NCBI GenBank assembly: GCA_964016885.1
Contig: OZ024741.1
Coordinates: forward strand, 188,046,001 to 188,110,000
DNA: 64,000 bases
Source of the DNA: Eledone cirrhosa
Taxonomy: Eukaryota
Reading direction: 5' to 3'
Below are positions 3,490 through 28,901 of the stretch, piece after piece. The first letter of the stretch is position 1. Every line of letters begins with the position of its first letter. A program made the translations under genes and the position numbers. The notes under the pieces are model-generated. The model made no database searches. It worked only from the letters and a program-made list of their open reading frames with translations, and was not told the origin of the DNA.

Positions 3490-4302
3490 AGGTGTGGAAG
3501 AGATCAGCTGTGTCCCAACCTGGAGAAGGATGTGCTCCGCCAAGGTTTAAATGCCCAAGCACGCTGTTTATCAGAATGGTCTCCCTACGACTCAACCATG
3601 AATTAAAGGCCTTCTACATTTACTTAGCATCAATGAGTACGAGCGGGAATCGTTCAGGTCGTAACATATGTGTTACAATAGATCTATGGGTCACACCTAA
3701 TCGTTCACCAGACTGCCTACGTACTAAAGGTCAACACCACTGTTTCTTATCTTACCTATGATAACCATTACTATTCATCCACTTAGATTAAATGCATGTA
3801 TGTATGGCCCCGTAACTCCTGATAGAGTCGTAGGGGTGCTGTATTGACATACGGCGTTTCTGGGGCATTTCAAGCCTGGCGGAGCCGCCCATCCCTCTCC
3901 AGGCCTGAGTATTGCAGACTTCTTCCAGAGAAAGATAGAAAGTGGAAATGAGTGGAAATGAGAAAGTAATCCACTTACATACAGCCATAGAACGGATTTC
4001 ATTTATAGAAACTACTACTACATACATACTCATTTTAATAGATAGACACATACATTGCATGAACATATTCATACACACGTACAAACACATATAGAATACA
4101 AACAAGAAGCGTTTTTTTTATATGTATAAATACATACATGTATTATACATAATATGTACACCGTTCGTGCTAAATATATTTTACCTACAGCAATGTCGTC
4201 TGCTTCTTTCATTATTCAATATATTACGAAGTTCAGTTGTTTGTTCTTTTGTTGAATATTTTTTCTTTCTTGTTCTTCTTGTCATTATTGTTGTCATTAT
4301 TG

Positions 4303-4349
<47 letters not shown>

Positions 4350-4562
4350 GAATGCCATGGTTGACGGAGGCTCGGCTCTGTAAGGTATAGTAATTTTTAA
4401 CCGTTAAAACAATTGTAAATTGTTTAAAACTTGAACCAAATTGTTGATAAAGACACCCTCCTCCTCGTGAGAGGGGTCTTTCTGTCCGTTATTTGGCCCT
4501 TCGGGGTTAAATAGCCAGTTATTGGGGTTTTGTACCCAAAATTTCATTTTAAACAAAAAAAC

Positions 4563-6662
4563 ATGGCTACCAAAAAAAAAAAATTTCATACGTCACTCCC
4601 ACTCATTCCGTCTTCTTCTTCCTCAATCATCACTACAGGAGAGAGAAGATTGTCTCTCTCCCTCCCTTCTTTAAATGTGTCTCTCTCCCTACCTTCTCTT
4701 TCGCAAGCGACGAAAGAAAAGAAAAGTCTCGTGCAAAGCGTGCAAGGTTTCTCCACGACGACGACGACAGCGACGAAACAGGTGTGCGGGAAATACGAAA
4801 ACCCAGTTCATTCGTCTGACGTCAGGAATAATAGCAGTAGCAGCCGTAATAACAACAGCAACAGTGACAATGAAAACAACAGTAGCAGCCGCAACAGCAT
4901 CACCAGCAGCATAAACAACAACACCATTAGCAGCAGCAACACCAACAACAACCACAGCAACAGCGGCGGAGGCAGTAGTCGTAGTACCTGCAGCAACAAC
5001 AAAAGTACCAGCAGCTCTGACGACAACAACAACAGCAGAGAAAAACCAATCTCATTTGCAGGTATTGCGAAAAACCTGGAAACAATCCTCATAACAAATG
5101 AGGAATTAGAGGAAGCGAAGAAGATGGTGACAAAGAACGGACACCGAGCAATCTGCAAGGCAGCGAAAAATTTTTTCGAAACCCAAGAGCACTGTACGGT
5201 CACGTACCGTACAGTAAGTACAAAATCCCGTAGGGTGGAAAGAGCCACAGAGGCCCAAATACAAAAAGCCTTGGGGTCTGTGTGGCAGAGGAAAACGCAC
5301 ATCACCCGAGGCAAAAAATACGCCACCGTAGACGTACTTTTTGCCACACCCCAGGAGGCAAAGGCCCAATCAGTAGTGACCCTAAGGAGCGAGGAAATGG
5401 TGTTGGTGCCCTCCTACTGCGGGCAAAAAATTGTGAGGGTCAAACTGACCCACGTCCCCCCCGGAATGACCCCTTCTTGGCTGGCCGCGTCTGTCCTCGT
5501 CGGAATCGAGGACAAAACAACTGTACTGCAAGTACAGAAAAAAGTAAGAGAAGATTGGGTCGGCTCCTCCATTGAGATGCTAATACAAACCAACCAGGAG
5601 TGCATCGAAGCTATCCCGGATGTGATAGACTTCGATAACGGCACTCAACTGCCCATAAGTGTTGAGGGCAAACGCCCGAAATGCTTTCGCTGTGGATCGA
5701 AGACTCACCTCAGGGCCTTCTGCAACGAGAAGACCCTGAGAAAGGAGAAAACCCCCCTCCTCCCGAATCCGGTTCCACGGCTACCAGCAACAGGACAAGC
5801 GGCAACCAGGAACGATAGGTCCGTGGCACCCATACCCACTCCACGGAAATCAAAGACAGCAGCAGCAGTGGAAATATTAACAACAACAACAGCAATACCA
5901 AATGCAGCTGCAACAGAGACTCCAGTGCAAACATCACCAACAACAACAAGTGAAAGAGTGGAGCTGGTACCCCTCCCCGACCTTACAGAATCAGACATGG
6001 AGTGTGAGGTGGGAGAGGGATGGCAAAAGGTCTCAAGAAGGCACAAACGCAGAAGCAGCGCATCGTCGCCTTTGAAAAGGGAGGAAAGAAATGAGAAAAG
6101 GGTAAAGTCTACTGCAAAGAGACCCACAGCAGCAACACCACCAACACCATCACCACCCACACCAGCACCACCATCACCACCGGCGACAACCCCACCGCCA
6201 ACAACACCTTCAACACCACCACCACAAGCACCAACATCGCAAACACAACAACAAAACACACACACCCAGCAACAACGACAAGAAAATAGCAGAACCACAC
6301 CCCACCCCCAGAAAAACAAATGCACGGCAATAAACACACACAACAAGAAACTAATGACTTACATAATTGAACACACAGACATTTCACAACAGGACTACAT
6401 AATACCAGCACCAATCAAAACGCCAACTAACATAAGACTGCTAAAAATAGCACAGAAACAATACACAAACATTAAAACGAAATTCCCCAACGCAGTTGGT
6501 GATTTCAGGGACCTAGGAGGAACCATTAATCGAAGAGTATATTCAGACATTCTCTTAGAAGAGCCGACGACCAGCCGAAGGGACGATTCAACGGTCCCTT
6601 CACCAGACGATCAAGTGAAAAGGGATGTAAAAACCATCCCTCCTCTACCAAAAATACGGTAA
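4563..6662 (+). CDS. ORF1 nucleic-acid-binding protein (699 aa from first ATG)
   Basis: CFRCGSKTHLRAFC = CX2CX4HX4C knuckle; S/N-rich and P/T-rich tracts; basic patch RRHKRR. Confidence 0.88.
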   Translation: MATKKKKFHTSLPLIPSSSSSIITTGERRLSLSLPSLNVSLSLPSLSQATKEKKSLVQSVQGFSTTTTTATKQVCGKYENPVHSSDVRNNSSSSRNNNSNSDNENNSSSRNSITSSINNNTISSSNTNNNHSNSGGGSSRSTCSNNKSTSSSDDNNNSREKPISFAGIAKNLETILITNEELEEAKKMVTKNGHRAICKAAKNFFETQEHCTVTYRTVSTKSRRVERATEAQIQKALGSVWQRKTHITRGKKYATVDVLFATPQEAKAQSVVTLRSEEMVLVPSYCGQKIVRVKLTHVPPGMTPSWLAASVLVGIEDKTTVLQVQKKVREDWVGSSIEMLIQTNQECIEAIPDVIDFDNGTQLPISVEGKRPKCFRCGSKTHLRAFCNEKTLRKEKTPLLPNPVPRLPATGQAATRNDRSVAPIPTPRKSKTAAAVEILTTTTAIPNAAATETPVQTSPTTTSERVELVPLPDLTESDMECEVGEGWQKVSRRHKRRSSASSPLKREERNEKRVKSTAKRPTAATPPTPSPPTPAPPSPPATTPPPTTPSTPPPQAPTSQTQQQNTHTQQQRQENSRTTPHPQKNKCTAINTHNKKLMTYIIEHTDISQQDYIIPAPIKTPTNIRLLKIAQKQYTNIKTKFPNAVGDFRDLGGTINRRVYSDILLEEPTTSRRDDSTVPSPDDQVKRDVKTIPPLPKIR

Positions 6663-6697
6663 GTGGTCTTTCCCATCTTTTCCACTCTATTTTAAAC

Positions 6698-9600
6698 ATG
6701 ACCTCACTCAGAATAGGCAGCATAAATGCGCGTGGCTTGGGGTCGTCATGGAAGCAGGGTCACCTGCTCAACGACCTCAGGTCACTAAACATAGATGTAG
6801 TGGCCATCAGCGAGACCAGAATCTCCGAAGCACGGGCCTTCGCACCGATCTTCGGCGGCTACGATGTGTACGCATCTCCCAGCCGTCCTGGATCGGGTGG
6901 AGGAGTTGCTGTGCTTTTTCGGAGAGGTTTGGATCTCGCCATACGGGCCATCTTCCTGGACCCAGAGGGTAAGCTGGTGGTGCTGGACGTGACCAGCGGA
7001 GACGGGCAAGCTTTCAGGCTAGTGGCCGTCTATGCCCCGACAGGAGCAGGGCGGCCTGATTTCTTCCGGCGTCTGGAGACCTTTCTTGGAACGTCGCGCT
7101 CTTTAGTGTTAGTGGGCGACTGGAACGGGATCTTAGATGCACGCTGGGACTGTGTGGGATTAGCGGATAGGGGTGGAGGGTGCAAGAGCCTCACCAACCT
7201 GCTCAGGCGTTTTGAACTGTCTGACAGGTACCGATTGGATTTCCCGAATGTGCCAATGTGGACTTGGACAAACCGCATAGGGTCATCCAGATCATATCTA
7301 GATAGAGTATTTTGTAGGGAAATAGATAGGTCTAGCATAGGCTGTCCACAATTCAAGATAGTCAGCTACACGGACCACAAATTCGTGATCTGTGTGCTTG
7401 ACTTAGATAGGCTTCATAGACGAGGACCCGGCTACTGGAAGCTAAACGCGTCCTTACCAGCGCGCAAGGCCTACAGAGACCGGATTAGCGAACTAGTTAA
7501 GCGGGCGTTGACGGGGGCCATCGTCAACAACAAGTGGTGGTTTGCTCTGAAAAGAGCGATTAGAATAGAATCGATTAGGTTTAGTAAGGCTTTAGCAATA
7601 GAGAAAAATAGAGCAGAGGGAGAACTAGTTAGAAAATTAGACGAGGCGCTTAGCAAAGGCATTGCGACCGACGTGCTTGCGGCGAAATTGGCCCTTGACC
7701 AATTCTTCAATGCAAAGCACGAAGGCTGCGTTGTCAGAGCTAGGGTGCGTGCTCTCAGACACGAGGGGACGAAAGCCGTTCAATGGGCCCGAGTGGCGGA
7801 GGCGCGTCGTGGCAACAAAGCCACGATCCGGTCTTTGGTGGACCACGACGGGCGCATGCTACTCGATCCCGGGCAAATGTGTGAAGCTTTTCAGCGACAC
7901 TTCGCTCAGCTGTTCGGGGGCAGCGGGGGGCCGGGTAGAGGGATGGACTTTAGTGTCTACCTCGACGGACTGCCGCGGCTCTCGGCCACTGAGGCGAAGT
8001 GTTGCGAAAAGCCGATAACAGCCGCTGAAGTAAGGGAGGCAATGACTGGCTGCACAAGGGGTAAATCGCCTGGTTTGGATGGTCTGCCCTATGAACTTTA
8101 CGTACAGATGCCAGACTTGTTCGGAGGCCTCTTGGCGGACGTCTACTGCAACTGGCAACAGAACGGGAGAATTCCCAGTTCTGTGAGCCGAGGAGCGGTG
8201 GCACTGCTGAGAAAGGATCCGAACAAGGGGGATAACATAGACAATTTCCGGCCCATAACTCTGCTAAACACAGAGTTTAAGATTTTGGCCAAGGTGCTAG
8301 CAAAGAGGTTGGCGCTTGTCGTTGGTGGTCTGGTGGGAGAGGCGCAGACATGCGCCATTCCCGACAGATCCATCCACGACAACCTCCACCTCATGCGATA
8401 CATCGTAGAGAGGGTAGCTAGGGAACCTGGCACGGGTGGGTCCTTGATCAATTTAGATCAGTCGAAAGCTTTCGATAGGGTCGACCATCGTTACCTAGCG
8501 GCAGTCCTGAGGGCGGCTGGCTTTGGGCCCGTCTTCAGAGGCTGGATCGCTGCCATGCACAGCGACATCTGCTCTGTGGTGAGAGTGAACGGTCACCTGT
8601 CGGAACCGTTCAACATCATGCGCTCGGTCCGCCAAGGATGTCCCCTCTCGTCCCTCTTGTACGTATTGACTCTCGAGCCATTACTGCACAAACTGGAGAC
8701 GTTGAGGGGAGTCCCGCGCGAACTAGGATGCGGAAGATCCGTGTCAGCATATGCGGACGATGTCACCGTAGTGGTGTCGAACGCCAAACACATCGAGGCG
8801 ATCGGCACTACACTAAGAGAATACGAAGCGGTGACAGGAGCAATGATCAACCAGGAAAAGTCAGTGGGCCTGCAGCTCGGCACCTGGAGAGGCAGGTCCA
8901 TGCCGTCCAACAGCGTCGTCGGGCGCTGGACGGACGGACCGGTTAAATTGCTAGGGGTCTGGTTCGGTCCGGACCTCCAGACGGACAAAAACTGGGACGA
9001 GGTGACGAGCAGGGTGGCTTCTCTCACCCAGAAATGGGCGGAGAGGAAGCTATCCCTGAAAGGTCGAGCGGAGGTGGCTAACGCGTACATCGCGTCTGTC
9101 ATCTGCTACCGCCTAACCGTCGTACCTTGTCCTAAGCCTCGCCTGACTGCGCTGGAGCGTTTGCTCTTTCGCTTTTTGTGGAAGGGACGTGCTCCGATGG
9201 TCAGGCGGTCCATCTGTTGTCAACACCCGCTACGTGGAGGGCTGGGCATGCCGTGGCTGATGATGCGCAGGCACGCGCTCAGGCTACGACATCTCCACCT
9301 CTTCCTCGACGGTGATCAGGTGTGGTCGCCGTTTGCTAGACGCGTTTTTCCCCAGCTCGTTTCCTTGACGGAGCTGCAGTCCTGGGTCAAGCGAAGACCG
9401 AGAGGGAGCGCCTGGAGACTGGAATGTCTTCAGGCGCTCACAGCCCTCGACCAATCGGGCAATGTGATCGGTGGAAACTCCACCTCGGCGTTCTATAGAG
9501 GATTAGTGGAGGGGAAGAGCGACGACGTACTTGGGGAAACTCTAGGCGTCGACGAAAATCAACTAGCCAATCTCTTCGGAAGAACCTTCGGGCCAGGGCC

Positions 9601-10117
9601 TATGGACAACTTCCAGAAATCTCTGGCCTGGCAGTGCTACCGAGGAGCCTTGCCAGTTCGGGATAAACTCTACAGGCATGGAGGTGCCGTCAGCCGGGCA
9701 TGTCCGAGATGCGCGCAGGGCGACGAAACCGTCCTGCACGCACTCGTCCAGTGTCCGAAAATTGCTGACTTGTGGGTTTATGTCGAACACCTGCTGTCGC
9801 GTTTAGGACGGATCCAGTTATCATCTGAGTCTATCGTGAGGATTGCCCCGCCCTCCTCCTTTAGCCGGGAAGGGCAGGCAGTTTTTATCTGTCTGGTGGC
9901 CATGGCGAAAGAGATAGTATGGTGGACACGTTTGAAAGGGCTGAAGACGAGCACTTACCTCTTCGGTGATGCTCTGATTGACTTTTTCAAATTTCATTTG
10001 AAAAGGAAAATCAGAGTAGAGAAGGAAGTGCTCTCTTCCCAGCATTTTGTTGAAAGATGGGTGAGAGAAGCAAGAATGGCCCGAGTGAATGGGCCGACTC
10101 TGAGTATATATCTGTAA
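6698..10117 (+). CDS. ORF2: APE endonuclease, reverse transcriptase, C-terminal zinc finger (1139 aa)
   Basis: SINARG, ISET, VYAP, GDWN, YLDR, TDH; KSPGLDGL, FRPITLLN, KAFDRV, VRQGCPLS, YADD; CPRC..ETVLHALVQC; GPGYWKLN typical of L1/Tx1. Confidence 0.95.
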   Translation: MTSLRIGSINARGLGSSWKQGHLLNDLRSLNIDVVAISETRISEARAFAPIFGGYDVYASPSRPGSGGGVAVLFRRGLDLAIRAIFLDPEGKLVVLDVTSGDGQAFRLVAVYAPTGAGRPDFFRRLETFLGTSRSLVLVGDWNGILDARWDCVGLADRGGGCKSLTNLLRRFELSDRYRLDFPNVPMWTWTNRIGSSRSYLDRVFCREIDRSSIGCPQFKIVSYTDHKFVICVLDLDRLHRRGPGYWKLNASLPARKAYRDRISELVKRALTGAIVNNKWWFALKRAIRIESIRFSKALAIEKNRAEGELVRKLDEALSKGIATDVLAAKLALDQFFNAKHEGCVVRARVRALRHEGTKAVQWARVAEARRGNKATIRSLVDHDGRMLLDPGQMCEAFQRHFAQLFGGSGGPGRGMDFSVYLDGLPRLSATEAKCCEKPITAAEVREAMTGCTRGKSPGLDGLPYELYVQMPDLFGGLLADVYCNWQQNGRIPSSVSRGAVALLRKDPNKGDNIDNFRPITLLNTEFKILAKVLAKRLALVVGGLVGEAQTCAIPDRSIHDNLHLMRYIVERVAREPGTGGSLINLDQSKAFDRVDHRYLAAVLRAAGFGPVFRGWIAAMHSDICSVVRVNGHLSEPFNIMRSVRQGCPLSSLLYVLTLEPLLHKLETLRGVPRELGCGRSVSAYADDVTVVVSNAKHIEAIGTTLREYEAVTGAMINQEKSVGLQLGTWRGRSMPSNSVVGRWTDGPVKLLGVWFGPDLQTDKNWDEVTSRVASLTQKWAERKLSLKGRAEVANAYIASVICYRLTVVPCPKPRLTALERLLFRFLWKGRAPMVRRSICCQHPLRGGLGMPWLMMRRHALRLRHLHLFLDGDQVWSPFARRVFPQLVSLTELQSWVKRRPRGSAWRLECLQALTALDQSGNVIGGNSTSAFYRGLVEGKSDDVLGETLGVDENQLANLFGRTFGPGPMDNFQKSLAWQCYRGALPVRDKLYRHGGAVSRACPRCAQGDETVLHALVQCPKIADLWVYVEHLLSRLGRIQLSSESIVRIAPPSSFSREGQAVFICLVAMAKEIVWWTRLKGLKTSTYLFGDALIDFFKFHLKRKIRVEKEVLSSQHFVERWVREARMARVNGPTLSIYL

Positions 10118-10387
10118 ACTAAAGGTGGAAAACTGGGAGAGGGCACTTGCCTTGGTGGTCAGGGTCATTGTGGCTTTTTACTGGGCTTTCTCCACAAATG
10201 TCCCTCCGAAGTCTCCCCCCTATTGGGGAATTTTTCATTGTTATTTTCATTGTTATTTTTGTTACATCCTCTGTTTTTGTTTTTTTTACACGCAGAAATG
10301 CCCATTTGTACCGTCCTGCATTGTCCTGCACTGTCCTTAATGTCTACTTTATGTAAACCCTTGTGGTTAATAAAGAAATCATTATTG

Positions 10388-10434
<47 letters not shown>

Positions 10435-10647
10435 GAATGCCATGGTTGACGGAGGCTCGGCTCTGTAAGGTATAGTAATTTTTAACCGTTAAAACAATTG
10501 TAAATTGTTTAAAACTTGAACCAAATTGTTGATAAAGACACCCTCCTCCTCGTGAGAGGGGTCTTTCTGTCCGTTATTTGGCCCTTCGGGGTTAAATAGC
10601 CAGTTATTGGGGTTTTGTACCCAAAATTTCATTTTAAACAAAAAAAC

Positions 10648-12747
10648 ATGGCTACCAAAAAAAAAAAATTTCATACGTCACTCCCACTCATTCCGTCTTC
10701 TTCTTCCTCAATCATCACTACAGGAGAGAGAAGATTGTCTCTCTCCCTCCCTTCTTTAAATGTGTCTCTCTCCCTACCTTCTCTTTCGCAAGCGACGAAA
10801 GAAAAGAAAAGTCTCGTGCAAAGCGTGCAAGGTTTCTCCACGACGACGACGACAGCGACGAAACAGGTGTGCGGGAAATACGAAAACCCAGTTCATTCGT
10901 CTGACGTCAGGAATAATAGCAGTAGCAGCCGTAATAACAACAGCAACAGTGACAATGAAAACAACAGTAGCAGCCGCAACAGCATCACCAGCAGCATAAA
11001 CAACAACACCATTAGCAGCAGCAACACCAACAACAACCACAGCAACAGCGGCGGAGGCAGTAGTCGTAGTACCTGCAGCAACAACAAAAGTACCAGCAGC
11101 TCTGACGACAACAACAACAGCAGAGAAAAACCAATCTCATTTGCAGGTATTGCGAAAAACCTGGAAACAATCCTCATAACAAATGAGGAATTAGAGGAAG
11201 CGAAGAAGATGGTGACAAAGAACGGACACCGAGCAATCTGCAAGGCAGCGAAAAATTTTTTCGAAACCCAAGAGCACTGTACGGTCACGTACCGTACAGT
11301 AAGTACAAAATCCCGTAGGGTGGAAAGAGCCACAGAGGCCCAAATACAAAAAGCCTTGGGGTCTGTGTGGCAGAGGAAAACGCACATCACCCGAGGCAAA
11401 AAATACGCCACCGTAGACGTACTTTTTGCCACACCCCAGGAGGCAAAGGCCCAATCAGTAGTGACCCTAAGGAGCGAGGAAATGGTGTTGGTGCCCTCCT
11501 ACTGCGGGCAAAAAATTGTGAGGGTCAAACTGACCCACGTCCCCCCCGGAATGACCCCTTCTTGGCTGGCCGCGTCTGTCCTCGTCGGAATCGAGGACAA
11601 AACAACTGTACTGCAAGTACAGAAAAAAGTAAGAGAAGATTGGGTCGGCTCCTCCATTGAGATGCTAATACAAACCAACCAGGAGTGCATCGAAGCTATC
11701 CCGGATGTGATAGACTTCGATAACGGCACTCAACTGCCCATAAGTGTTGAGGGCAAACGCCCGAAATGCTTTCGCTGTGGATCGAAGACTCACCTCAGGG
11801 CCTTCTGCAACGAGAAGACCCTGAGAAAGGAGAAAACCCCCCTCCTCCCGAATCCGGTTCCACGGCTACCAGCAACAGGACAAGCGGCAACCAGGAACGA
11901 TAGGTCCGTGGCACCCATACCCACTCCACGGAAATCAAAGACAGCAGCAGCAGTGGAAATATTAACAACAACAACAGCAATACCAAATGCAGCTGCAACA
12001 GAGACTCCAGTGCAAACATCACCAACAACAACAAGTGAAAGAGTGGAGCTGGTACCCCTCCCCGACCTTACAGAATCAGACATGGAGTGTGAGGTGGGAG
12101 AGGGATGGCAAAAGGTCTCAAGAAGGCACAAACGCAGAAGCAGCGCATCGTCGCCTTTGAAAAGGGAGGAAAGAAATGAGAAAAGGGTAAAGTCTACTGC
12201 AAAGAGACCCACAGCAGCAACACCACCAACACCATCACCACCCACACCAGCACCACCATCACCACCGGCGACAACCCCACCGCCAACAACACCTTCAACA
12301 CCACCACCACAAGCACCAACATCGCAAACACAACAACAAAACACACACACCCAGCAACAACGACAAGAAAATAGCAGAACCACACCCCACCCCCAGAAAA
12401 ACAAATGCACGGCAATAAACACACACAACAAGAAACTAATGACTTACATAATTGAACACACAGACATTTCACAACAGGACTACATAATACCAGCACCAAT
12501 CAAAACGCCAACTAACATAAGACTGCTAAAAATAGCACAGAAACAATACACAAACATTAAAACGAAATTCCCCAACGCAGTTGGTGATTTCAGGGACCTA
12601 GGAGGAACCATTAATCGAAGAGTATATTCAGACATTCTCTTAGAAGAGCCGACGACCAGCCGAAGGGACGATTCAACGGTCCCTTCACCAGACGATCAAG
12701 TGAAAAGGGATGTAAAAACCATCCCTCCTCTACCAAAAATACGGTAA
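10648..12747 (+). CDS. ORF1, copy 2
   Basis: Same protein as copy 1. Confidence 0.88.
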   Translation: MATKKKKFHTSLPLIPSSSSSIITTGERRLSLSLPSLNVSLSLPSLSQATKEKKSLVQSVQGFSTTTTTATKQVCGKYENPVHSSDVRNNSSSSRNNNSNSDNENNSSSRNSITSSINNNTISSSNTNNNHSNSGGGSSRSTCSNNKSTSSSDDNNNSREKPISFAGIAKNLETILITNEELEEAKKMVTKNGHRAICKAAKNFFETQEHCTVTYRTVSTKSRRVERATEAQIQKALGSVWQRKTHITRGKKYATVDVLFATPQEAKAQSVVTLRSEEMVLVPSYCGQKIVRVKLTHVPPGMTPSWLAASVLVGIEDKTTVLQVQKKVREDWVGSSIEMLIQTNQECIEAIPDVIDFDNGTQLPISVEGKRPKCFRCGSKTHLRAFCNEKTLRKEKTPLLPNPVPRLPATGQAATRNDRSVAPIPTPRKSKTAAAVEILTTTTAIPNAAATETPVQTSPTTTSERVELVPLPDLTESDMECEVGEGWQKVSRRHKRRSSASSPLKREERNEKRVKSTAKRPTAATPPTPSPPTPAPPSPPATTPPPTTPSTPPPQAPTSQTQQQNTHTQQQRQENSRTTPHPQKNKCTAINTHNKKLMTYIIEHTDISQQDYIIPAPIKTPTNIRLLKIAQKQYTNIKTKFPNAVGDFRDLGGTINRRVYSDILLEEPTTSRRDDSTVPSPDDQVKRDVKTIPPLPKIR

Positions 12748-12782
12748 GTGGTCTTTCCCATCTTTTCCACTCTATTTTAAAC

Positions 12783-15700
12783 ATGACCTCACTCAGAATA
12801 GGCAGCATAAATGCGCGTGGCTTGGGGTCGTCATGGAAGCAGGGTCACCTGCTCAACGACCTCAGGTCACTAAACATAGATGTAGTGGCCATCAGCGAGA
12901 CCAGAATCTCCGAAGCACGGGCCTTCGCACCGATCTTCGGCGGCTACGATGTGTACGCATCTCCCAGCCGTCCTGGATCGGGTGGAGGAGTTGCTGTGCT
13001 TTTTCGGAGAGGTTTGGATCTCGCCATACGGGCCATCTTCCTGGACCCAGAGGGTAAGCTGGTGGTGCTGGACGTGACCAGCGGAGACGGGCAAGCTTTC
13101 AGGCTAGTGGCCGTCTATGCCCCGACAGGAGCAGGGCGGCCTGATTTCTTCCGGCGTCTGGAGACCTTTCTTGGAACGTCGCGCTCTTTAGTGTTAGTGG
13201 GCGACTGGAACGGGATCTTAGATGCACGCTGGGACTGTGTGGGATTAGCGGATAGGGGTGGAGGGTGCAAGAGCCTCACCAACCTGCTCAGGCGTTTTGA
13301 ACTGTCTGACAGGTACCGATTGGATTTCCCGAATGTGCCAATGTGGACTTGGACAAACCGCATAGGGTCATCCAGATCATATCTAGATAGAGTATTTTGT
13401 AGGGAAATAGATAGGTCTAGCATAGGCTGTCCACAATTCAAGATAGTCAGCTACACGGACCACAAATTCGTGATCTGTGTGCTTGACTTAGATAGGCTTC
13501 ATAGACGAGGACCCGGCTACTGGAAGCTAAACGCGTCCTTACCAGCGCGCAAGGCCTACAGAGACCGGATTAGCGAACTAGTTAAGCGGGCGTTGACGGG
13601 GGCCATCGTCAACAACAAGTGGTGGTTTGCTCTGAAAAGAGCGATTAGAATAGAATCGATTAGGTTTAGTAAGGCTTTAGCAATAGAGAAAAATAGAGCA
13701 GAGGGAGAACTAGTTAGAAAATTAGACGAGGCGCTTAGCAAAGGCATTGCGACCGACGTGCTTGCGGCGAAATTGGCCCTTGACCAATTCTTCAATGCAA
13801 AGCACGAAGGCTGCGTTGTCAGAGCTAGGGTGCGTGCTCTCAGACACGAGGGGACGAAAGCCGTTCAATGGGCCCGAGTGGCGGAGGCGCGTCGTGGCAA
13901 CAAAGCCACGATCCGGTCTTTGGTGGACCACGACGGGCGCATGCTACTCGATCCCGGGCAAATGTGTGAAGCTTTTCAGCGACACTTCGCTCAGCTGTTC
14001 GGGGGCAGCGGGGGGCCGGGTAGAGGGATGGACTTTAGTGTCTACCTCGACGGACTGCCGCGGCTCTCGGCCACTGAGGCGAAGTGTTGCGAAAAGCCGA
14101 TAACAGCCGCTGAAGTAAGGGAGGCAATGACTGGCTGCACAAGGGGTAAATCGCCTGGTTTGGATGGTCTGCCCTATGAACTTTACGTACAGATGCCAGA
14201 CTTGTTCGGAGGCCTCTTGGCGGACGTCTACTGCAACTGGCAACAGAACGGGAGAATTCCCAGTTCTGTGAGCCGAGGAGCGGTGGCACTGCTGAGAAAG
14301 GATCCGAACAAGGGGGATAACATAGACAATTTCCGGCCCATAACTCTGCTAAACACAGAGTTTAAGATTTTGGCCAAGGTGCTAGCAAAGAGGTTGGCGC
14401 TTGTCGTTGGTGGTCTGGTGGGAGAGGCGCAGACATGCGCCATTCCCGACAGATCCATCCACGACAACCTCCACCTCATGCGATACATCGTAGAGAGGGT
14501 AGCTAGGGAACCTGGCACGGGTGGGTCCTTGATCAATTTAGATCAGTCGAAAGCTTTCGATAGGGTCGACCATCGTTACCTAGCGGCAGTCCTGAGGGCG
14601 GCTGGCTTTGGGCCCGTCTTCAGAGGCTGGATCGCTGCCATGCACAGCGACATCTGCTCTGTGGTGAGAGTGAACGGTCACCTGTCGGAACCGTTCAACA
14701 TCATGCGCTCGGTCCGCCAAGGATGTCCCCTCTCGTCCCTCTTGTACGTATTGACTCTCGAGCCATTACTGCACAAACTGGAGACGTTGAGGGGAGTCCC
14801 GCGCGAACTAGGATGCGGAAGATCCGTGTCAGCATATGCGGACGATGTCACCGTAGTGGTGTCGAACGCCAAACACATCGAGGCGATCGGCACTACACTA
14901 AGAGAATACGAAGCGGTGACAGGAGCAATGATCAACCAGGAAAAGTCAGTGGGCCTGCAGCTCGGCACCTGGAGAGGCAGGTCCATGCCGTCCAACAGCG
15001 TCGTCGGGCGCTGGACGGACGGACCGGTTAAATTGCTAGGGGTCTGGTTCGGTCCGGACCTCCAGACGGACAAAAACTGGGACGAGGTGACGAGCAGGGT
15101 GGCTTCTCTCACCCAGAAATGGGCGGAGAGGAAGCTATCCCTGAAAGGTCGAGCGGAGGTGGCTAACGCGTACATCGCGTCTGTCATCTGCTACCGCCTA
15201 ACCGTCGTACCTTGTCCTAAGCCTCGCCTGACTGCGCTGGAGCGTTTGCTCTTTCGCTTTTTGTGGAAGGGACGTGCTCCGATGGTCAGGCGGTCCATCT
15301 GTTGTCAACACCCGCTACGTGGAGGGCTGGGCATGCCGTGGCTGATGATGCGCAGGCACGCGCTCAGGCTACGACATCTCCACCTCTTCCTCGACGGTGA
15401 TCAGGTGTGGTCGCCGTTTGCTAGACGCGTTTTTCCCCAGCTCGTTTCCTTGACGGAGCTGCAGTCCTGGGTCAAGCGAAGACCGAGAGGGAGCGCCTGG
15501 AGACTGGAATGTCTTCAGGCGCTCACAGCCCTCGACCAATCGGGCAATGTGATCGGTGGAAACTCCACCTCGGCGTTCTATAGAGGATTAGTGGAGGGGA
15601 AGAGCGACGACGTACTTGGGGAAACTCTAGGCGTCGACGAAAATCAACTAGCCAATCTCTTCGGAAGAACCTTCGGGCCAGGGCCTATGGACAACTTCCA

Positions 15701-16202
15701 GAAATCTCTGGCCTGGCAGTGCTACCGAGGAGCCTTGCCAGTTCGGGATAAACTCTACAGGCATGGAGGTGCCGTCAGCCGGGCATGTCCGAGATGCGCG
15801 CAGGGCGACGAAACCGTCCTGCACGCACTCGTCCAGTGTCCGAAAATTGCTGACTTGTGGGTTTATGTCGAACACCTGCTGTCGCGTTTAGGACGGATCC
15901 AGCTATCATCTGAGTCTATCGTGAGGATTGCCCCGCCCTCCTCCTTTAGCCGGGAAGGGCAGGCAGTTTTTATCTGTCTGGTGGCCATGGCGAAAGAGAT
16001 AGTATGGTGGACACGTTTGAAAGGGCTGAAGACGAGCACTTACCTCTTCGGTGATGCTCTGATTGACTTTTTCAAATTTCATTTGAAAAGGAAAATCAGA
16101 GTAGAGAAGGAAGTGCTCTCTTCCCAGCATTTTGTTGAAAGATGGGTGAGAGAAGCAAGAATGGCCCGAGTGAATGGGCCGACTCTGAGTATATATCTGT
16201 AA
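12783..16202 (+). CDS. ORF2 (APE-RT-ZnF), copy 2
   Basis: Same protein as copy 1. Confidence 0.95.
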   Translation: MTSLRIGSINARGLGSSWKQGHLLNDLRSLNIDVVAISETRISEARAFAPIFGGYDVYASPSRPGSGGGVAVLFRRGLDLAIRAIFLDPEGKLVVLDVTSGDGQAFRLVAVYAPTGAGRPDFFRRLETFLGTSRSLVLVGDWNGILDARWDCVGLADRGGGCKSLTNLLRRFELSDRYRLDFPNVPMWTWTNRIGSSRSYLDRVFCREIDRSSIGCPQFKIVSYTDHKFVICVLDLDRLHRRGPGYWKLNASLPARKAYRDRISELVKRALTGAIVNNKWWFALKRAIRIESIRFSKALAIEKNRAEGELVRKLDEALSKGIATDVLAAKLALDQFFNAKHEGCVVRARVRALRHEGTKAVQWARVAEARRGNKATIRSLVDHDGRMLLDPGQMCEAFQRHFAQLFGGSGGPGRGMDFSVYLDGLPRLSATEAKCCEKPITAAEVREAMTGCTRGKSPGLDGLPYELYVQMPDLFGGLLADVYCNWQQNGRIPSSVSRGAVALLRKDPNKGDNIDNFRPITLLNTEFKILAKVLAKRLALVVGGLVGEAQTCAIPDRSIHDNLHLMRYIVERVAREPGTGGSLINLDQSKAFDRVDHRYLAAVLRAAGFGPVFRGWIAAMHSDICSVVRVNGHLSEPFNIMRSVRQGCPLSSLLYVLTLEPLLHKLETLRGVPRELGCGRSVSAYADDVTVVVSNAKHIEAIGTTLREYEAVTGAMINQEKSVGLQLGTWRGRSMPSNSVVGRWTDGPVKLLGVWFGPDLQTDKNWDEVTSRVASLTQKWAERKLSLKGRAEVANAYIASVICYRLTVVPCPKPRLTALERLLFRFLWKGRAPMVRRSICCQHPLRGGLGMPWLMMRRHALRLRHLHLFLDGDQVWSPFARRVFPQLVSLTELQSWVKRRPRGSAWRLECLQALTALDQSGNVIGGNSTSAFYRGLVEGKSDDVLGETLGVDENQLANLFGRTFGPGPMDNFQKSLAWQCYRGALPVRDKLYRHGGAVSRACPRCAQGDETVLHALVQCPKIADLWVYVEHLLSRLGRIQLSSESIVRIAPPSSFSREGQAVFICLVAMAKEIVWWTRLKGLKTSTYLFGDALIDFFKFHLKRKIRVEKEVLSSQHFVERWVREARMARVNGPTLSIYL

Positions 16203-16472
16203 ACTAAAGGTGGAAAACTGGGAGAGGGCACTTGCCTTGGTGGTCAGGGTCATTGTGGCTTTTTACTGGGCTTTCTCCACAAATGTCCCTCCGAAGTCTC
16301 CCCCCTATTGGGGAATTTTTCATTGTTATTTTCATTGTTATTTTTGTTACATCCTCTATTTTTGTTTTTTTTACACGCAGAAATGCCCATTTGTACCGTC
16401 CTGCATTGTCCTGCACTGTCCTTAATGTCTACTTTATGTAAACCCTTGTGGTTAATAAAGAAATCATTATTG

Positions 16473-16519
<47 letters not shown>

Positions 16520-16732
16520 GAATGCCATGGTTGACGGAGGCTCGGCTCTGTAAGGTATAGTAATTTTTAACCGTTAAAACAATTGTAAATTGTTTAAAAC
16601 TTGAACCAAATTGTTGATAAAGACACCCTCCTCCTCGTGAGAGGGGTCTTTCTGTCCGTTATTTGGCCCTTCGGGGTTAAATAGCCAGTTATTGGGGTTT
16701 TGTACCCAAAATTTCATTTTAAACAAAAAAAC

Positions 16733-18832
16733 ATGGCTACCAAAAAAAAAAAATTTCATACGTCACTCCCACTCATTCCGTCTTCTTCTTCCTCAATCAT
16801 CACTACAGGAGAGAGAAGATTGTCTCTCTCCCTCCCTTCTTTAAATGTGTCTCTCTCCCTACCTTCTCTTTCGCAAGCGACGAAAGAAAAGAAAAGTCTC
16901 GTGCAAAGCGTGCAAGGTTTCTCCACGACGACGACGACAGCGACGAAACAGGTGTGCGGGAAATACGAAAACCCAGTTCATTCGTCTGACGTCAGGAATA
17001 ATAGCAGTAGCAGCCGTAATAACAACAGCAACAGTGACAATGAAAACAACAGTAGCAGCCGCAACAGCATCACCAGCAGCATAAACAACAACACCATTAG
17101 CAGCAGCAACACCAACAACAACCACAGCAACAGCGGCGGAGGCAGTAGTCGTAGTACCTGCAGCAACAACAAAAGTACCAGCAGCTCTGACGACAACAAC
17201 AACAGCAGAGAAAAACCAATCTCATTTGCAGGTATTGCGAAAAACCTGGAAACAATCCTCATAACAAATGAGGAATTAGAGGAAGCGAAGAAGATGGTGA
17301 CAAAGAACGGACACCGAGCAATCTGCAAGGCAGCGAAAAATTTTTTCGAAACCCAAGAGCACTGTACGGTCACGTACCGTACAGTAAGTACAAAATCCCG
17401 TAGGGTGGAAAGAGCCACAGAGGCCCAAATACAAAAAGCCTTGGGGTCTGTGTGGCAGAGGAAAACGCACATCACCCGAGGCAAAAAATACGCCACCGTA
17501 GACGTACTTTTTGCCACACCCCAGGAGGCAAAGGCCCAATCAGTAGTGACCCTAAGGAGCGAGGAAATGGTGTTGGTGCCCTCCTACTGCGGGCAAAAAA
17601 TTGTGAGGGTCAAACTGACCCACGTCCCCCCCGGAATGACCCCTTCTTGGCTGGCCGCGTCTGTCCTCGTCGGAATCGAGGACAAAACAACTGTACTGCA
17701 AGTACAGAAAAAAGTAAGAGAAGATTGGGTCGGCTCCTCCATTGAGATGCTAATCCAAACCAACCAGGAGTGCATCGAAGCTATCCCGGATGTGATAGAC
17801 TTCGATAACGGCACTCAACTGCCCATAAGTGTTGAGGGCAAACGCCCGAAATGCTTTCGCTGTGGATCGAAGACTCACCTCAGGGCCTTCTGCAACGAGA
17901 AGACCCTGAGAAAGGAGAAAACCCCCCTCCTCCCGAATCCGGTTCCACGGCTACCAGCAACAGGACAAGCGGCAACCAGGAACGATAGGTCCGTGGCACC
18001 CATACCCACTCCACGGAAATCAAAGACAGCAGCAGCAGTGGAAATATTAACAACAACAACAGCAATACCAAATGCAGCTGCAACAGAGACTCCAGTGCAA
18101 ACATCACCAACAACAACAAGTGAAAGAGTGGAGCTGGTACCCCTCCCCGACCTTACAGAATCAGACATGGAGTGTGAGGTGGGAGAGGGATGGCAAAAGG
18201 TCTCAAGAAGGCACAAACGCAGAAGCAGCGCATCGTCGCCTTTGAAAAGGGAGGAAAGAAATGAGAAAAGGGTAAAGTCTACTGCAAAGAGACCCACAGC
18301 AGCAACACCACCAACACCATCACCACCCACACCAGCACCACCATCACCACCGGCGACAACCCCACCGCCAACAACACCTTCAACACCACCACCACAAGCA
18401 CCAACATCGCAAACACAACAACAAAACACACACACCCAGCAACAACGACAAGAAAATAGCAGAACCACACCCCACCCCCAGAAAAACAAATGCACGGCAA
18501 TAAACACACACAACAAGAAACTAATGACTTACATAATTGAACACACAGACATTTCACAACAGGACTACATAATACCAGCACCAATCAAAACGCCAACTAA
18601 CATAAGACTGCTAAAAATAGCACAGAAACAATACACAAACATTAAAACGAAATTTCCCAACGCAGTTGGTGATTTCAGGGACCTAGGAGGAACCATTAAT
18701 CGAAGAGTATATTCAGACATTCTCTTAGAAGAGCCGACGACCAGCCGAAGGGACGATTCAACGGTCCCTTCACCAGACGATCAAGTGAAAAGGGATGTAA
18801 AAACCATCCCTCCTCTACCAAAAATACGGTAA
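16733..18832 (+). CDS. ORF1, copy 3
   Basis: Same protein; two synonymous changes seen. Confidence 0.88.
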   Translation: MATKKKKFHTSLPLIPSSSSSIITTGERRLSLSLPSLNVSLSLPSLSQATKEKKSLVQSVQGFSTTTTTATKQVCGKYENPVHSSDVRNNSSSSRNNNSNSDNENNSSSRNSITSSINNNTISSSNTNNNHSNSGGGSSRSTCSNNKSTSSSDDNNNSREKPISFAGIAKNLETILITNEELEEAKKMVTKNGHRAICKAAKNFFETQEHCTVTYRTVSTKSRRVERATEAQIQKALGSVWQRKTHITRGKKYATVDVLFATPQEAKAQSVVTLRSEEMVLVPSYCGQKIVRVKLTHVPPGMTPSWLAASVLVGIEDKTTVLQVQKKVREDWVGSSIEMLIQTNQECIEAIPDVIDFDNGTQLPISVEGKRPKCFRCGSKTHLRAFCNEKTLRKEKTPLLPNPVPRLPATGQAATRNDRSVAPIPTPRKSKTAAAVEILTTTTAIPNAAATETPVQTSPTTTSERVELVPLPDLTESDMECEVGEGWQKVSRRHKRRSSASSPLKREERNEKRVKSTAKRPTAATPPTPSPPTPAPPSPPATTPPPTTPSTPPPQAPTSQTQQQNTHTQQQRQENSRTTPHPQKNKCTAINTHNKKLMTYIIEHTDISQQDYIIPAPIKTPTNIRLLKIAQKQYTNIKTKFPNAVGDFRDLGGTINRRVYSDILLEEPTTSRRDDSTVPSPDDQVKRDVKTIPPLPKIR

Positions 18833-18867
18833 GTGGTCTTTCCCATCTTTTCCACTCTATTTTAAAC

Positions 18868-21800
18868 ATGACCTCACTCAGAATAGGCAGCATAAATGCG
18901 CGTGGCTTGGGGTCGTCATGGAAGCAGGGTCACCTGCTCAACGACCTCAGGTCACTAAACATAGATGTAGTGGCCATCAGCGAGACCAGAATCTCCGAAG
19001 CACGGGCCTTCGCACCGATCTTCGGCGGCTACGATGTGTACGCATCTCCCAGCCGTCCTGGATCCGGTGGAGGAGTTGCTGTACTTTTTCGGAGAGGTTT
19101 GGATCTCGCCATACGGGCCATCTTCCTGGACCCAGAGGGTAAGCTGGTGGTGCTGGACGTGACCAGCGGAGACGGGCAAGCTTTCAGGCTAGTGGCCGTC
19201 TATGCCCCGACAGGAGCAGGGCGGCCTGATTTCTTCCGGCGTCTGGAGACCTTTCTTGGAACGTCCCGCTCTTTAGTGTTAGTGGGCGACTGGAACGGGA
19301 TCTTAGATGCACGCTGGGACTGTGTGGGATTAGCGGATAGGGGTGGAGGGTGCAAGAGCCTCACCAACCTGCTCAGGCGTTTTGAACTGTCTGACAGGTA
19401 CCGATTGGATTTCCCGAATGTGCCAATGTGGACTTGGACAAACCGCATAGGGTCATCCAGATCATATCTAGATAGAGTATTTTGTAGGGAAATAGATAGG
19501 TCTAGCATAGGCTGTCCACAATTCAAGATAGTCAGCTACACGGACCACAAATTCGTGATCTGTGTGCTTGACTTAGATAGGCTTCATAGACGAGGACCCG
19601 GCTACTGGAAGCTAAACGCGTCCTTACCAGCGCGCAAGGCCTACAGAGACCGGATTAGCGAACTAGTTAAGCGGGCGTTGACGGGGGCCATCGTCAACAA
19701 CAAGTGGTGGTTTGCTCTGAAAAGAGCGATTAGAATAGAATCGATTAGGTTTAGTAAGGCTTTAGCAATAGAGAAAAATAGAGCAGAGGGAGAACTAGTT
19801 AGAAAATTAGACGAGGCGCTTAGCAAAGGCATTGCGACCGACGTGCTTGCGGCGAAATTGGCCCTTGACCAATTCTTCAATGCAAAGCACGAAGGCTGCG
19901 TTGTCAGAGCTAGGGTGCGTGCTCTCAGACACGAGGGGACGAAAGCCGTTCAATGGGCCCGAGTGGCGGAGGCGCGTCGTGGCAACAAAGCCACGATCCG
20001 GTCTTTGGTGGACCACGACGGGCGCATGCTACTCGATCCCGGGCAAATGTGTGAAGCTTTTCAGCGACACTTCGCTCAGCTGTTCGGGGGCAGCGGGGGG
20101 CCGGGTAGAGGGATGGACTTTAGTGTCTACCTCGACGGGCTGCCGCGGCTCTCGGCCACTGAGGCGAGGTGTTGCGAAAAGCCGATAACAGCCGCTGAAG
20201 TACGGGAGGCAATGACTGGCTGCACAAGGGGTAAATCGCCTGGTTTGGATGGTCTGCCCTATGAACTTTACGTACAGATGCCAGACTTGTTCGGAGGCCT
20301 CTTGGCGGACGTCTACTGCAACTGGCAACAGAACGGGAGAATTCCCAGTTCTGTGAGCCGAGGAGCGGTGGCACTGCTGAGAAAGGATCCGAACAAGGGG
20401 GATAACATAGACAATTTCCGGCCCATAACTCTGCTAAACACAGAGTTTAAGATTTTGGCCAAGGTGCTAGCAAAGAGGTTGGCGCTTGTCGTTGGTGGTC
20501 TGGTGGGAGAGGCGCAGACATGCGCCATTCCCGACAGATCCATCCACGACAACCTCCACCTCATGCGATACATCGTAGAGAGGGTAGCTAGGGAACCTGG
20601 CACGGGTGGGTCCTTGATCAATTTAGATCAGTCGAAAGCTTTCGATAGGGTCGACCATCGTTACCTAGCGGCAGTCCTGAGGGCGGCTGGCTTTGGGCCC
20701 GTCTTCAGAGGCTGGATCGCTGCCATGCACAGCGACATCTGCTCTGTGGTGAGAGTGAACGGTCACCTGTCGGAACCGTTCAACATCATGCGCTCGGTCC
20801 GCCAAGGATGTCCCCTCTCGTCCCTCTTGTACGTATTGACTCTCGAGCCATTACTGCACAAACTGGAGACGTTGAGGGGAGTCCCGCGCGAACTAGGATG
20901 CGGAAGATCCGTGTCAGCATATGCGGACGATGTCACCGTAGTGGTGTCGAACGCCAAACACATCGAGGCGATCGGCACTACACTAAGAGAATACGAAGCG
21001 GTGACAGGAGCAATGATCAACCAGGAAAAGTCAGTGGGCCTGCAGCTCGGCACCTGGAGAGGCAGGTCCATGCCGTCCAACAGCGTCGTCGGGCGCTGGA
21101 CGGACGGACCGGTTAAATTGCTAGGGGTCTGGTTCGGTCCGGACCTCCAGACGGACAAAAACTGGGACGAGGTGACGAGCAGGGTGGCTTCTCTCACCCA
21201 GAAATGGGCGGAGAGGAAGCTATCCCTGAAAGGTCGAGCGGAGGTGGCTAACGCGTACATCGCGTCTGTCATCTGCTACCGCCTAACCGTCGTACCTTGT
21301 CCTAAGCCTCGCCTGACTGCGCTGGAGCGTTTGCTCTTTCGCTTTTTGTGGAAGGGACGTGCTCCGATGGTCAGGCGGTCCATCTGTTGTCAACACCCGC
21401 TACGTGGAGGGCTGGGCATGCCGTGGCTGATGATGCGCAGGCACGCGCTCAGGCTACGACATCTCCACCTCTTCCTCGACGGTGATCAGGTGTGGTCGCC
21501 GTTTGCTAGACGCGTTTTTCCCCAGCTCGTTTCCTTGACGGAGCTGCAGTCCTGGGTCAAGCGAAGACCGAGAGGGAGCGCCTGGAGACTGGAATGTCTT
21601 CAGGCGCTCACAGCCCTCGACCAATCGGGCAATGTGATCGGTGGAAACTCCACCTCGGCGTTCTATAGAGGATTAGTGGAGGGGAAGAGCGACGACGTAC
21701 TTGGGGAAACTCTAGGCGTCGACGAAAATCAACTAGCCAATCTCTTCGGAAGAACTTTCGGGCCGGGGCCTATGGACAACTTCCAGAAATCTCTGGCCTG

Positions 21801-22287
21801 GCAGTGCTACCGAGGAGCCTTGCCAGTTCGGGATAAACTCTACAGGCATGGAGGTGCCGTCAGCCGGGCATGTCCGAGATGCGCGCAGGGCGACGAAACT
21901 GTCCTGCACGCACTCGTCCAGTGTCCGAAAATTGCTGACTTGTGGGTTTATGTCGAACACCTGCTGTCGCGTTTAGGACGGATCCAGCTATCATCTGAGT
22001 CCATCGTGAGGATTGCCCCGCCCTCCTCCTTTAGCCGGGAAGGGCAGGCAGTTTTTATCTGTCTGGTGGCCATGGCGAAAGAGATAGTATGGTGGACACG
22101 TTTGAAAGGGCTGAAGACGAGCACTTACCTCTTCGGTGATGCTCTGATTGACTTTTTCAAATTTCATTTGAAAAGGAAAATCAGAGTAGAGAGGGAAGTG
22201 CTCTCTTCCCAGCATTTTGTTGAAAGATGGGTGAGAGAAGCAAGAATGGCCCGAGTGAATGGGCCGACTCTGAGTATATATCTGTAA
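18868..22287 (+). CDS. ORF2 (APE-RT-ZnF), copy 3
   Basis: Intact; two K->R changes (TEARCC, RVEREV). Confidence 0.95.
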   Translation: MTSLRIGSINARGLGSSWKQGHLLNDLRSLNIDVVAISETRISEARAFAPIFGGYDVYASPSRPGSGGGVAVLFRRGLDLAIRAIFLDPEGKLVVLDVTSGDGQAFRLVAVYAPTGAGRPDFFRRLETFLGTSRSLVLVGDWNGILDARWDCVGLADRGGGCKSLTNLLRRFELSDRYRLDFPNVPMWTWTNRIGSSRSYLDRVFCREIDRSSIGCPQFKIVSYTDHKFVICVLDLDRLHRRGPGYWKLNASLPARKAYRDRISELVKRALTGAIVNNKWWFALKRAIRIESIRFSKALAIEKNRAEGELVRKLDEALSKGIATDVLAAKLALDQFFNAKHEGCVVRARVRALRHEGTKAVQWARVAEARRGNKATIRSLVDHDGRMLLDPGQMCEAFQRHFAQLFGGSGGPGRGMDFSVYLDGLPRLSATEARCCEKPITAAEVREAMTGCTRGKSPGLDGLPYELYVQMPDLFGGLLADVYCNWQQNGRIPSSVSRGAVALLRKDPNKGDNIDNFRPITLLNTEFKILAKVLAKRLALVVGGLVGEAQTCAIPDRSIHDNLHLMRYIVERVAREPGTGGSLINLDQSKAFDRVDHRYLAAVLRAAGFGPVFRGWIAAMHSDICSVVRVNGHLSEPFNIMRSVRQGCPLSSLLYVLTLEPLLHKLETLRGVPRELGCGRSVSAYADDVTVVVSNAKHIEAIGTTLREYEAVTGAMINQEKSVGLQLGTWRGRSMPSNSVVGRWTDGPVKLLGVWFGPDLQTDKNWDEVTSRVASLTQKWAERKLSLKGRAEVANAYIASVICYRLTVVPCPKPRLTALERLLFRFLWKGRAPMVRRSICCQHPLRGGLGMPWLMMRRHALRLRHLHLFLDGDQVWSPFARRVFPQLVSLTELQSWVKRRPRGSAWRLECLQALTALDQSGNVIGGNSTSAFYRGLVEGKSDDVLGETLGVDENQLANLFGRTFGPGPMDNFQKSLAWQCYRGALPVRDKLYRHGGAVSRACPRCAQGDETVLHALVQCPKIADLWVYVEHLLSRLGRIQLSSESIVRIAPPSSFSREGQAVFICLVAMAKEIVWWTRLKGLKTSTYLFGDALIDFFKFHLKRKIRVEREVLSSQHFVERWVREARMARVNGPTLSIYL

Positions 22288-22556
22288 ACTAAAGGTGGAA
22301 AACTGGGAGAGGGCACTTGCCTTGGTGGTCAGGGTCATTGTGGCTTTTTACTGGGCTTTCTCCACAAATGTCCCTCCGAAGTCTCCCCCCTATTGGGGAA
22401 TTTTTCATTGTTATTTTCATTGTTATTTTTGTTACATCCTCTGTTTTTGTTTTTTTACACGCAGAAATGCCCATTTGTACCGTCCTGCATTGTCCTGCAC
22501 TGTCCTTAATGTCTACTTTATGTAAACCCTTGTGGTTAATAAAGAAATCATTATTG

Positions 22557-22603
<47 letters not shown>

Positions 22604-22816
22604 GAATGCCATGGTTGACGGAGGCTCGGCTCTGTAAGGTATAGTAATTTTTAACCGTTAAAACAATTGTAAATTGTTTAAAACTTGAACCAAATTGTTG
22701 ATAAAGACACCCTCCTCCTCGTGAGAGGGGTCTTTCTGTCCGTTATTTGGCCCTTCGGGGTTAAATAGCCAGTTATTGGGGTTTTGTACCCAAAATTTCA
22801 TTTTAAACAAAAAAAC

Positions 22817-24916: not shown

Positions 24917-24951
24917 GTGGTCTTTCCCATCTTTTCCACTCTATTTTAAAC

Positions 24952-28641: not shown

Positions 28642-28688
<47 letters not shown>

Positions 28689-28901
28689 GAATGCCATGGT
28701 TGACGGAGGCTCGGCTCTGTAAGGTATAGTAATTTTTAACCGTTAAAACAATTGTAAATTGTTTAAAACTTGAACCAAATTGTTGATAAAGACACCCTCC
28801 TCCTCGTGAGAGGGGTCTTTCTGTCCGTTATTTGGCCCTTCGGGGTTAAATAGCCAGTTATTGGGGTTTTGTACCCAAAATTTCATTTTAAACAAAAAAA
28901 C

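Follow-up and report, generated by a model that had tools for sequence, protein, structure and literature searches.

Five head-to-tail copies of an L1-superfamily LINE in an interrupted (ATT)n microsatellite of Eledone cirrhosa, with spacers identical to the upstream flank

The analysed window, a stretch of 64,000 nucleotides of the Eledone cirrhosa contig OZ024741.1, holds five head-to-tail copies of a LINE, all of them full length and with intact open reading frames (Table 1). The units have the same first and last nucleotide, measure 6030-6031 bp and vary among themselves at 16 of 6031 alignment columns. The window has exactly five occurrences of a 54-mer, ATTATTGTTGTT(ATT)14, one at 4296-4349 in the upstream flank and four at 10381-10434, 16466-16519, 22550-22603 and 28635-28688 between the copies. 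The identity of the 54-bp spacers with the upstream flank, already pointed out in a sequence-only reading of this DNA, was thus found at all four spacers (4/4), and the match is even 56 bp long (4294-4349 = 10379-10434), the preceding TC being common to both. The same reading had reported a microhomology between the element end and the flank at the TC-ATTATT boundary and a copy 5 tail devoid of GTTGTT; both are borne out, as the AATAAAGAAATC end together with the next ATTATT forms an 8-nt match, TCATTATT, to the target, and the last junction consists of (ATT)12 ATC ATT ATT (34720-34764), which we read as a tail and/or a short duplication followed by host DNA.

Table 1. Coordinates of the array and of associated features in the window.
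Feature	Position	Strand	Basis
Host flank, 12-bp doublet of GTCATTATTGTT	4281..4304	+	sequence
Upstream target, TC + ATTATTGTTGTT(ATT)14, identical to the four spacers	4294..4349	+	exact match
LINE copy 1, lineage A, full length	4350..10380	+	unit alignment
ORF1 (copy 1), CX2CX4HX4C knuckle at residue 390 of the stop-to-stop frame	4563..6662	+	motif
ORF2 (copy 1), 1139 aa, APE endonuclease + RT (YADD) + zf-RVT	6698..10117	+	Pfam
Element 3' end AATAAAGAAATC (copy 1)	10369..10380	+	sequence
Spacer 1	10381..10434	+	exact match
LINE copy 2 (lineage A; same sequence as copy 4)	10435..16465	+	unit alignment
Spacer 2	16466..16519	+	exact match
LINE copy 3, lineage B	16520..22549	+	unit alignment, allele comparison
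Spacer 3	22550..22603	+	exact match
LINE copy 4, lineage A	22604..28634	+	unit alignment
Spacer 4	28635..28688	+	exact match
LINE copy 5, lineage A, probable founder	28689..34719	+	unit alignment
Copy 5 3' junction, (ATT)12 ATC ATT ATT, without GTTGTT	34720..34764	+	sequence
Solitary relative, 5'-truncated, decayed, 72-76% identical	38191..39467	-	sequence comparison

ORF2 matches the Pfam families Exo_endo_phos, RVT_1 and zf-RVT, with the APE domain at the N-terminus and a zinc knuckle at the C-terminus, and contains the residues E39, Y112, D141, N143, D202, D226 and H227 as well as the YADD motif. We take these residues to be catalytic from an alignment with L1 and from general knowledge of such enzymes. 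A profile of ORF2 and its relatives, compared with PDB sequences and hence with those clades for which structures have been solved, matched human L1 ORF2p with an E-value of 2e-104 and R2 proteins with 6e-37 or weaker. ORF1 gave no Pfam match; it is homologous to the ORF1 of a related array-forming lineage (E about 1e-13, see below), and its look-alikes in the Atlas (0.90-0.93) bear zf-CCHC and ZCCHC3-type RNA-binding domains. Having two ORFs and an ORF2 closer to L1 than to R2, the units are LINEs of the L1 superfamily (L1/Tx1). Membership of Tx1 itself appears likely from the type of ORF1, since an ORF1 of the RRM + CCHC type (Type I) is consistent with Tx1 in the available text of PMC5203782.

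Part of an element of this family, matching 5% of ORF2 at 64% identity, lies within a gene model of Octopus sinensis, and the annotation of O. vulgaris lists 13 recently active L1-Tx1 families, according to the accessible part of its description (PMC13282606). Near-identical element sequence is present in the read runs of six organism labels (word shares 0.52-0.86), which implies that the family spans several related taxa. Relatives in metagenomes amount to 80 loci, distant and mostly short, and none were detected in the viral contigs searched; at one further locus (L115), a single copy lies in the stretch examined. The 5' UTR is predicted to form two stable hairpins at 4452-4515 (fold z -2.5 for 4350-4520), which correspond to no Rfam family at threshold. 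An Rfam scan of positions 10000-11000 gave no match near the gathering score, and hence no known ribozyme in this interval.

To judge from the distribution of the motif, the spacer most likely originated as a duplicate of the host DNA in the upstream flank. The 11-mer TCATTATTGTT occurs in the window only at 4282, at 4294 and at the four junctions. The flank already carries it as a 12-bp doublet (4281-4292 and 4293-4304), so the match with the spacers is not due to chance, and the motif, doubled there, is absent from both the copy 5 tail and the older solitary relative, which argues for a host origin. On the simplest reading the GTT interruption would be native to the locus, that is, host sequence. 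The solitary relative ends with TAATAAAGAAACC followed by ATCATCA, without GTTGTT and with no (ATT)n run downstream, suggesting that the family end is AATAAAGAAAYC plus a short trinucleotide tail. The portion of the spacer that stems from the host would accordingly measure 48-56 bp and not necessarily 54.

Copies 2 and 4 are identical, and with respect to them copy 1 differs at two sites, namely a private silent change (9818) and a 3' UTR allele in common with copy 3 (10273), and copy 5 at one, a silent allele also found in copy 3 (33934). This near-identity is as DNA-level duplication would give, and the unit alignment revealed no age gradient along the five copies. Between copy 3 and copy 2 there are 15 differences. 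Thirteen are coding, of which 11 are silent and two are K>R; random changes would be silent in 24-34% of cases (P 7e-6 to 3e-4 for the excess). At 13 sites, located at element positions 1236-5931, it stands alone against copies 1, 2, 4 and 5, and its first 1235 bp show zero differences (P about 0.03, post hoc). All four allele combinations occur at element positions 5246 and 5924; thus, some recombination took place.

Alleles were further compared with public read runs of near-identical sequence, a comparison that covered organism G among the six labels and 40 of 1417 variant rows. At 5585, 7096, 8033, 9586, 9832 and 10023, copy 3 has the letter that prevails in runs X8 and X11, and X11 contigs carry the copy 1 letter at 6485 and 7969, which indicates that lineages A and B each have their own derived changes. 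Each of them thus went through selection for function. X8 shows 0 differences to the unique flank and may be the source individual, hence not an independent sample; the assembly of X11 includes the element (word depth 73-114 on near-identical contigs, word depths not being copy numbers) and leaves out two unique-flank bins. A third run, X14, is unrelated (7 reads placed). All five copies carry non-majority letters at 4924, 5984, 8599, 10015, 10096 and 10119, and the array thus forms a clade relative to the sampled individuals. Two other origins of copy 3 were considered and rejected: random error, as its coding changes are mostly silent, and a polished consensus, as six letters are off the majority in all five copies. 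Copy 3 is therefore a separate functional lineage, yet the spacers on both its sides are identical. (ATT)14 runs alter their length far faster than substitutions arise; that all five have the same length although the copies beside them have diverged suggests that a single template was copied recently.

A profile scan of genome contigs returned 40 loci, 35 of them on CAXXMW01 (hereafter G001), a GTDB genome labelled Arenicella (a bacterial MAG), in which 16 contigs of animal DNA are packed with tandem arrays of an L1/Tx1-type LINE (C3-C15 and C17-C19; loci L081-L114, L117 and L121-L136). These contigs are evidently mis-binned animal DNA. Their ORF2 is 41% identical to that of the window and their ORF1 is homologous; the elements end directly after AATAAA, without a tail. 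All element-bearing contigs (16/16) carry at least two head-to-tail copies, up to 13, a frequency to be read with the fact that composition binning favours such contigs. On contig C18 the host flank is duplicated (454 bp), so that the empty target is visible, and a 16-bp host stretch precedes the first copy and recurs between two copies whose 5' ends differ. This is the architecture of the window, and on C18 the host origin of the spacer is proven. In the six arrays with a visible left end, the spacer equals its own left flank exactly in two, with 3/18 mismatches in one and not at all in three. Two of the latter (C4 and C19) have one spacer in common beside different flanks, and 12 nt of this shared spacer also follow the last element of C19 at its far 3' end, a sign that the spacer may travel on RNA. 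G001 spacers are about 11-19 bp where the boundary can be set, with 38 of 60 junctions equal to the modal 16-mer; they are short and variable within arrays, whereas those of the window are identical.

Within G001 arrays, ORF2 differences comprise 59 silent and 61 replacement changes (P 4e-4 against 34%). Copies are mosaic, and one truncated copy combines the 5' part of its right neighbour with a 3' end like that of its left neighbour, as unequal exchange, or completion of a cDNA on an adjacent copy, would leave behind. Insertion and exchange both seem to act in this genome. The 15 contigs placed in a tree have one ORF2 clade each, giving 8 clades with 8 spacer types, although three contig pairs may be single loci; these clades diverged under purifying selection (pN/pS 0.16-0.41). 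On C6, C7, C8, C12, C13, C15, C17 and C19, copies of one array are nearly identical in ORF2 and the 3' region and carry 5' UTR/ORF1 parts of different subfamilies (at most about 400 mismatches in 2.3 kb); this points to swapping of ORF1 on a shared ORF2. On C9, the two rightmost copies are truncated at the same 5' point; their aligned part is free of differences in its first 1.9 kb and has 14 of them further 3'. Pairing of the element 5' end with the spacer, noticed by eye as hairpins at G001 junctions, was rejected: a swapped-partner permutation gave p = 0.21 on 10 junction types and p = 0.30 on 9, and the fold predicted for the junction in the window is less stable than those of shuffled sequences (z +2.3).

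Array growth was simulated under five histories, with one long-spacer event and crossovers only. These models are crude, with a neutral pool of 30 alleles, uniform crossovers and no conversion; among 28,453 mixed five-copy arrays, none had both unmixed units and lineage A at both ends. In a control seeded with an A-B-A trimer, 22% of the arrays were pure with A ends and 0.19% had the exact order. With mean tracts of 1, 2, 4 and 8 kb, the chance of a conversion tract spanning all 13 copy 3 markers is 0.0001, 0.01, 0.10 and 0.31, respectively. Two lineages per se fit one double insertion; their order A A B A A, unmixed, is harder to explain. The models, crude as they are, favour a second event that regenerated the spacer. 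Given the failure of crossovers alone to produce the observed order, it is likely that the spacer was regenerated by at least one further insertion or that copy 3 was converted over at least 4.7 kb.

We thus propose, with a probability of roughly 0.55, that the array was built by repeated target-primed insertion into the duplicated upstream target, likely with some exchange between copies. The founder would be copy 5, inserted inside the (ATT)n run. A second element would have primed 48-56 bp further left, its RNA end AAUC-AUUAUU matching TCATTATT, and would have been resolved at the 5' junction of the founder, thereby duplicating the intervening stretch. The duplicated stretch would then constitute a regenerated target, reused at least once (copy 3, lineage B), and copies 1, 2 and 4 would derive from further insertions or from unequal exchange. 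Either the new cDNA would be finished by pairing with the 5' end of the neighbouring copy, or a spacer-carrying array transcript would anneal in register; both routes would yield an exact spacer and exact full-length 5' ends. We consider them more likely than a 54-bp enzymatic stagger, which is disfavoured because the relatives, and APE LINEs generally, have duplications of 10-20 bp. The lack of differences in the first 1235 bp of copy 3 is what completion on a neighbour would give, and weakly hints at it. Copy 5 is taken as the probable founder because its 3' junction differs from the others.

The sequence-only reading had proposed that each copy inserted just upstream of the resident one with a fixed target-site duplication of 54 bp, so that the array grew leftward from an oldest copy 5. 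A duplication that may span 48-56 bp, and the spacers of about 11-19 bp in relatives, fit a fixed 54-bp stagger less well. The host-derived spacer and the second-lineage copy 3 speak for serial insertion, whereas the identity of copies 2 and 4 speaks against an origin of all four spacers in this way; likewise, copy 5 may be kept as the founder on account of its junction, without the age gradient that leftward growth would leave.

In kind, such an insertion model is the one published for R1 and is not new. In the arrays of R1 in Drosophila 28S rDNA, as described in the available text of Stage and Eickbush (2009, PMC2718515), the copies are separated by the 14-bp target-site duplication, new copies are inferred to enter the duplication that adjoins a resident copy at its 5' end, and the RNA 3' ends carry target sequence that anneals to the target. 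Both systems consist of head-to-tail APE-type LINEs with spacers that duplicate the target upstream of the array. R1, as presented there, belongs to its own clade, uses a multicopy 28S target and has a 14-bp spacer that is its normal duplication; the window elements, unlike R1, are of the L1/Tx1 type and lie in an interrupted microsatellite at a single locus, with a spacer of 54-56 bp and a last copy without spacer. The array thus works like R1 and is not R1, given flanks of microsatellite and unique DNA and an L1-like ORF2. What is new with respect to this precedent is the clade, the microsatellite target and the length of the duplication.

McGurk and Barbash (10.1101/158386), in the part of their text available, describe TE dimers formed by double insertion and expanded by unequal exchange, including a D. 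melanogaster R1 array with identical 33-nt spacers. Identical target-derived spacers and complete elements within arrays are common to these cases and to the window; the dimers described there need one seeding event, whereas the internal second-lineage copy of the window needs a further insertion or a long conversion, and their non-LTR tandems are mostly tail-to-internal, whereas our five copies are all full length. Closer in machinery are the Tx1 families Kibi and Koshi, which target microsatellites, and the tandem SINEU-3 "sandwiching a TSD" of 16 nt (Kojima 2015, PMC4494074): L1/Tx1-type machinery, a microsatellite target and, probably, successive insertions in tandem that leave a duplication between the copies recur in the window. 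The accessible text of that study, which calls a Tx1 family microsatellite-specific when >20% of its flanks are of one repeat type, names (TC)n, (TTC)n, (TTCC)n or a transposon as targets, and describes there neither (ATT)n nor full-length arrays with long spacers. Our literature search, conducted outside Repbase and most subscription papers, found no tandem L1/Tx1 arrays in cephalopods or in this lineage. R9 is an element with a restriction-like endonuclease. Its target-site duplication of 126 bp, as cited in the available text of PMC6895275, where those of APE LINEs are usually 10-20 bp, is an example of a fixed duplication that exceeds 54 bp, the 48-56 bp of the window being long for the APE class.

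The most serious competitor of repeated insertion, which we nevertheless hold to be rather unlikely, is that the 56-bp duplication arose once, through one long target-site duplication or a microhomology-mediated DNA duplication at TCATTATT, that the copies multiplied by unequal exchange, and that copy 3 was overwritten by a conversion of at least 4.7 kb from a lineage-B copy elsewhere; in one sub-case, the founder had a 54-bp duplication on both sides and GTTGTT was later lost from the right-hand one by one 18-bp slippage. The perfect identity of the spacers and near-identity of the A copies, the four-gamete pattern, the mosaic copies with their exchange signature in the related arrays and the published route from dimer to expansion, with its R1 array of identical 33-nt spacers (10.1101/158386, as far as its text was available), all agree with such a history. 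However, crossovers alone gave the observed arrangement in 0/28,453 simulated arrays, a tract over all 13 markers has a P of at most 0.01 as long as mean tracts are no longer than 2 kb, and the mosaic blocks in one related array span about 0.3-0.7 kb. Copy 3 weighs in the same manner against the alternative entertained in the sequence-only reading, one ectopic recombination followed by unequal crossing-over, since that alternative, too, requires gene conversion over a long tract. Were a single duplication event the true history, the locus would be an ordinary TE dimer, expanded.

It is improbable that the array is only partly real, its copy number or its uniform (ATT)14 being a product of assembly or of read correction. 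Four near-identical 6-kb units with equal microsatellite lengths, two of them (copies 2 and 4) identical, in an array known from the assembly alone, would fit an artefact; yet the changes of copy 3 are mostly silent and are those of neither random error nor a family consensus, the sites that distinguish copies 1, 3 and 5 lie at most about 12 kb apart, which should be within the reach of long reads, and similar arrays stand on many independent contigs of a relative. More improbable still is that the GTTGTT spacer is part of an element transcript acquired elsewhere and that the upstream match reflects a homology-guided choice of target. The spacer common to C4 and C19 of G001 beside different left flanks, with 12 nt of it at the far 3' end of C19, points in this direction, as does the transport of target sequence to other sites by R1 RNA (PMC2718515, available text); the doubling of the motif in the flank of the window and its absence from copy 5, which belongs to the lineage of copies 1, 2 and 4, and from the solitary relative point away from it.

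Beyond this locus, one may wonder if a branch of L1/Tx1 makes its own target specificity, a captured host spacer on array transcripts steering re-insertion and copies being finished on a neighbour. We regard this as unlikely; if true, each sub-lineage would live in a self-built landing pad and not in a host multigene family. Hints are the single ORF2 clade per contig, the pairing of 8 clades with 8 spacer types, the purifying selection, the reuse of one spacer at two loci and the six shared non-majority letters in the window copies, but concerted evolution by DNA exchange, binning bias and contigs of the same locus explain much of these hints equally well. If the target does travel on array transcripts, any locus could give rise de novo to target-specific LINEs, a prospect also relevant to tools for RNA-templated insertion. 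Duplications inside a microsatellite normally escape measurement; the GTT interruption is a natural marker that allows it here, and the 48-56 bp that it gives are about three times the 10-20 bp usual for APE LINEs. The locus bears on second-strand synthesis and 5' joining in LINEs and on the growth of arrays by insertion versus exchange, and the contamination in G001 offers a ready data set on the latter.

The window holds other repeats. A 467-bp unit is present in 5.9 tandem copies at 44357-47090, with 0-1 differences among the first five; this array ends in (TA)n and is adjoined upstream by an inverted copy of part of the unit. Two fragments encode RT, at 50706-52409 on the minus strand (RVT_1, E 1e-6), which adjoins degenerate repeats of 72-177 bp at 52415-52806, and at 58852-59697 on the plus strand (RVT_1, E 8e-13). 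Short weak ORF2 matches at 1092-1211 and 1400-1463 are probably older LINE remains. Finally, a 33-bp unit is repeated 5.3 times at 37474-37647 and resembles part of a dispersed repeat found near 810 and 2780, which we presume to be SINE-like.
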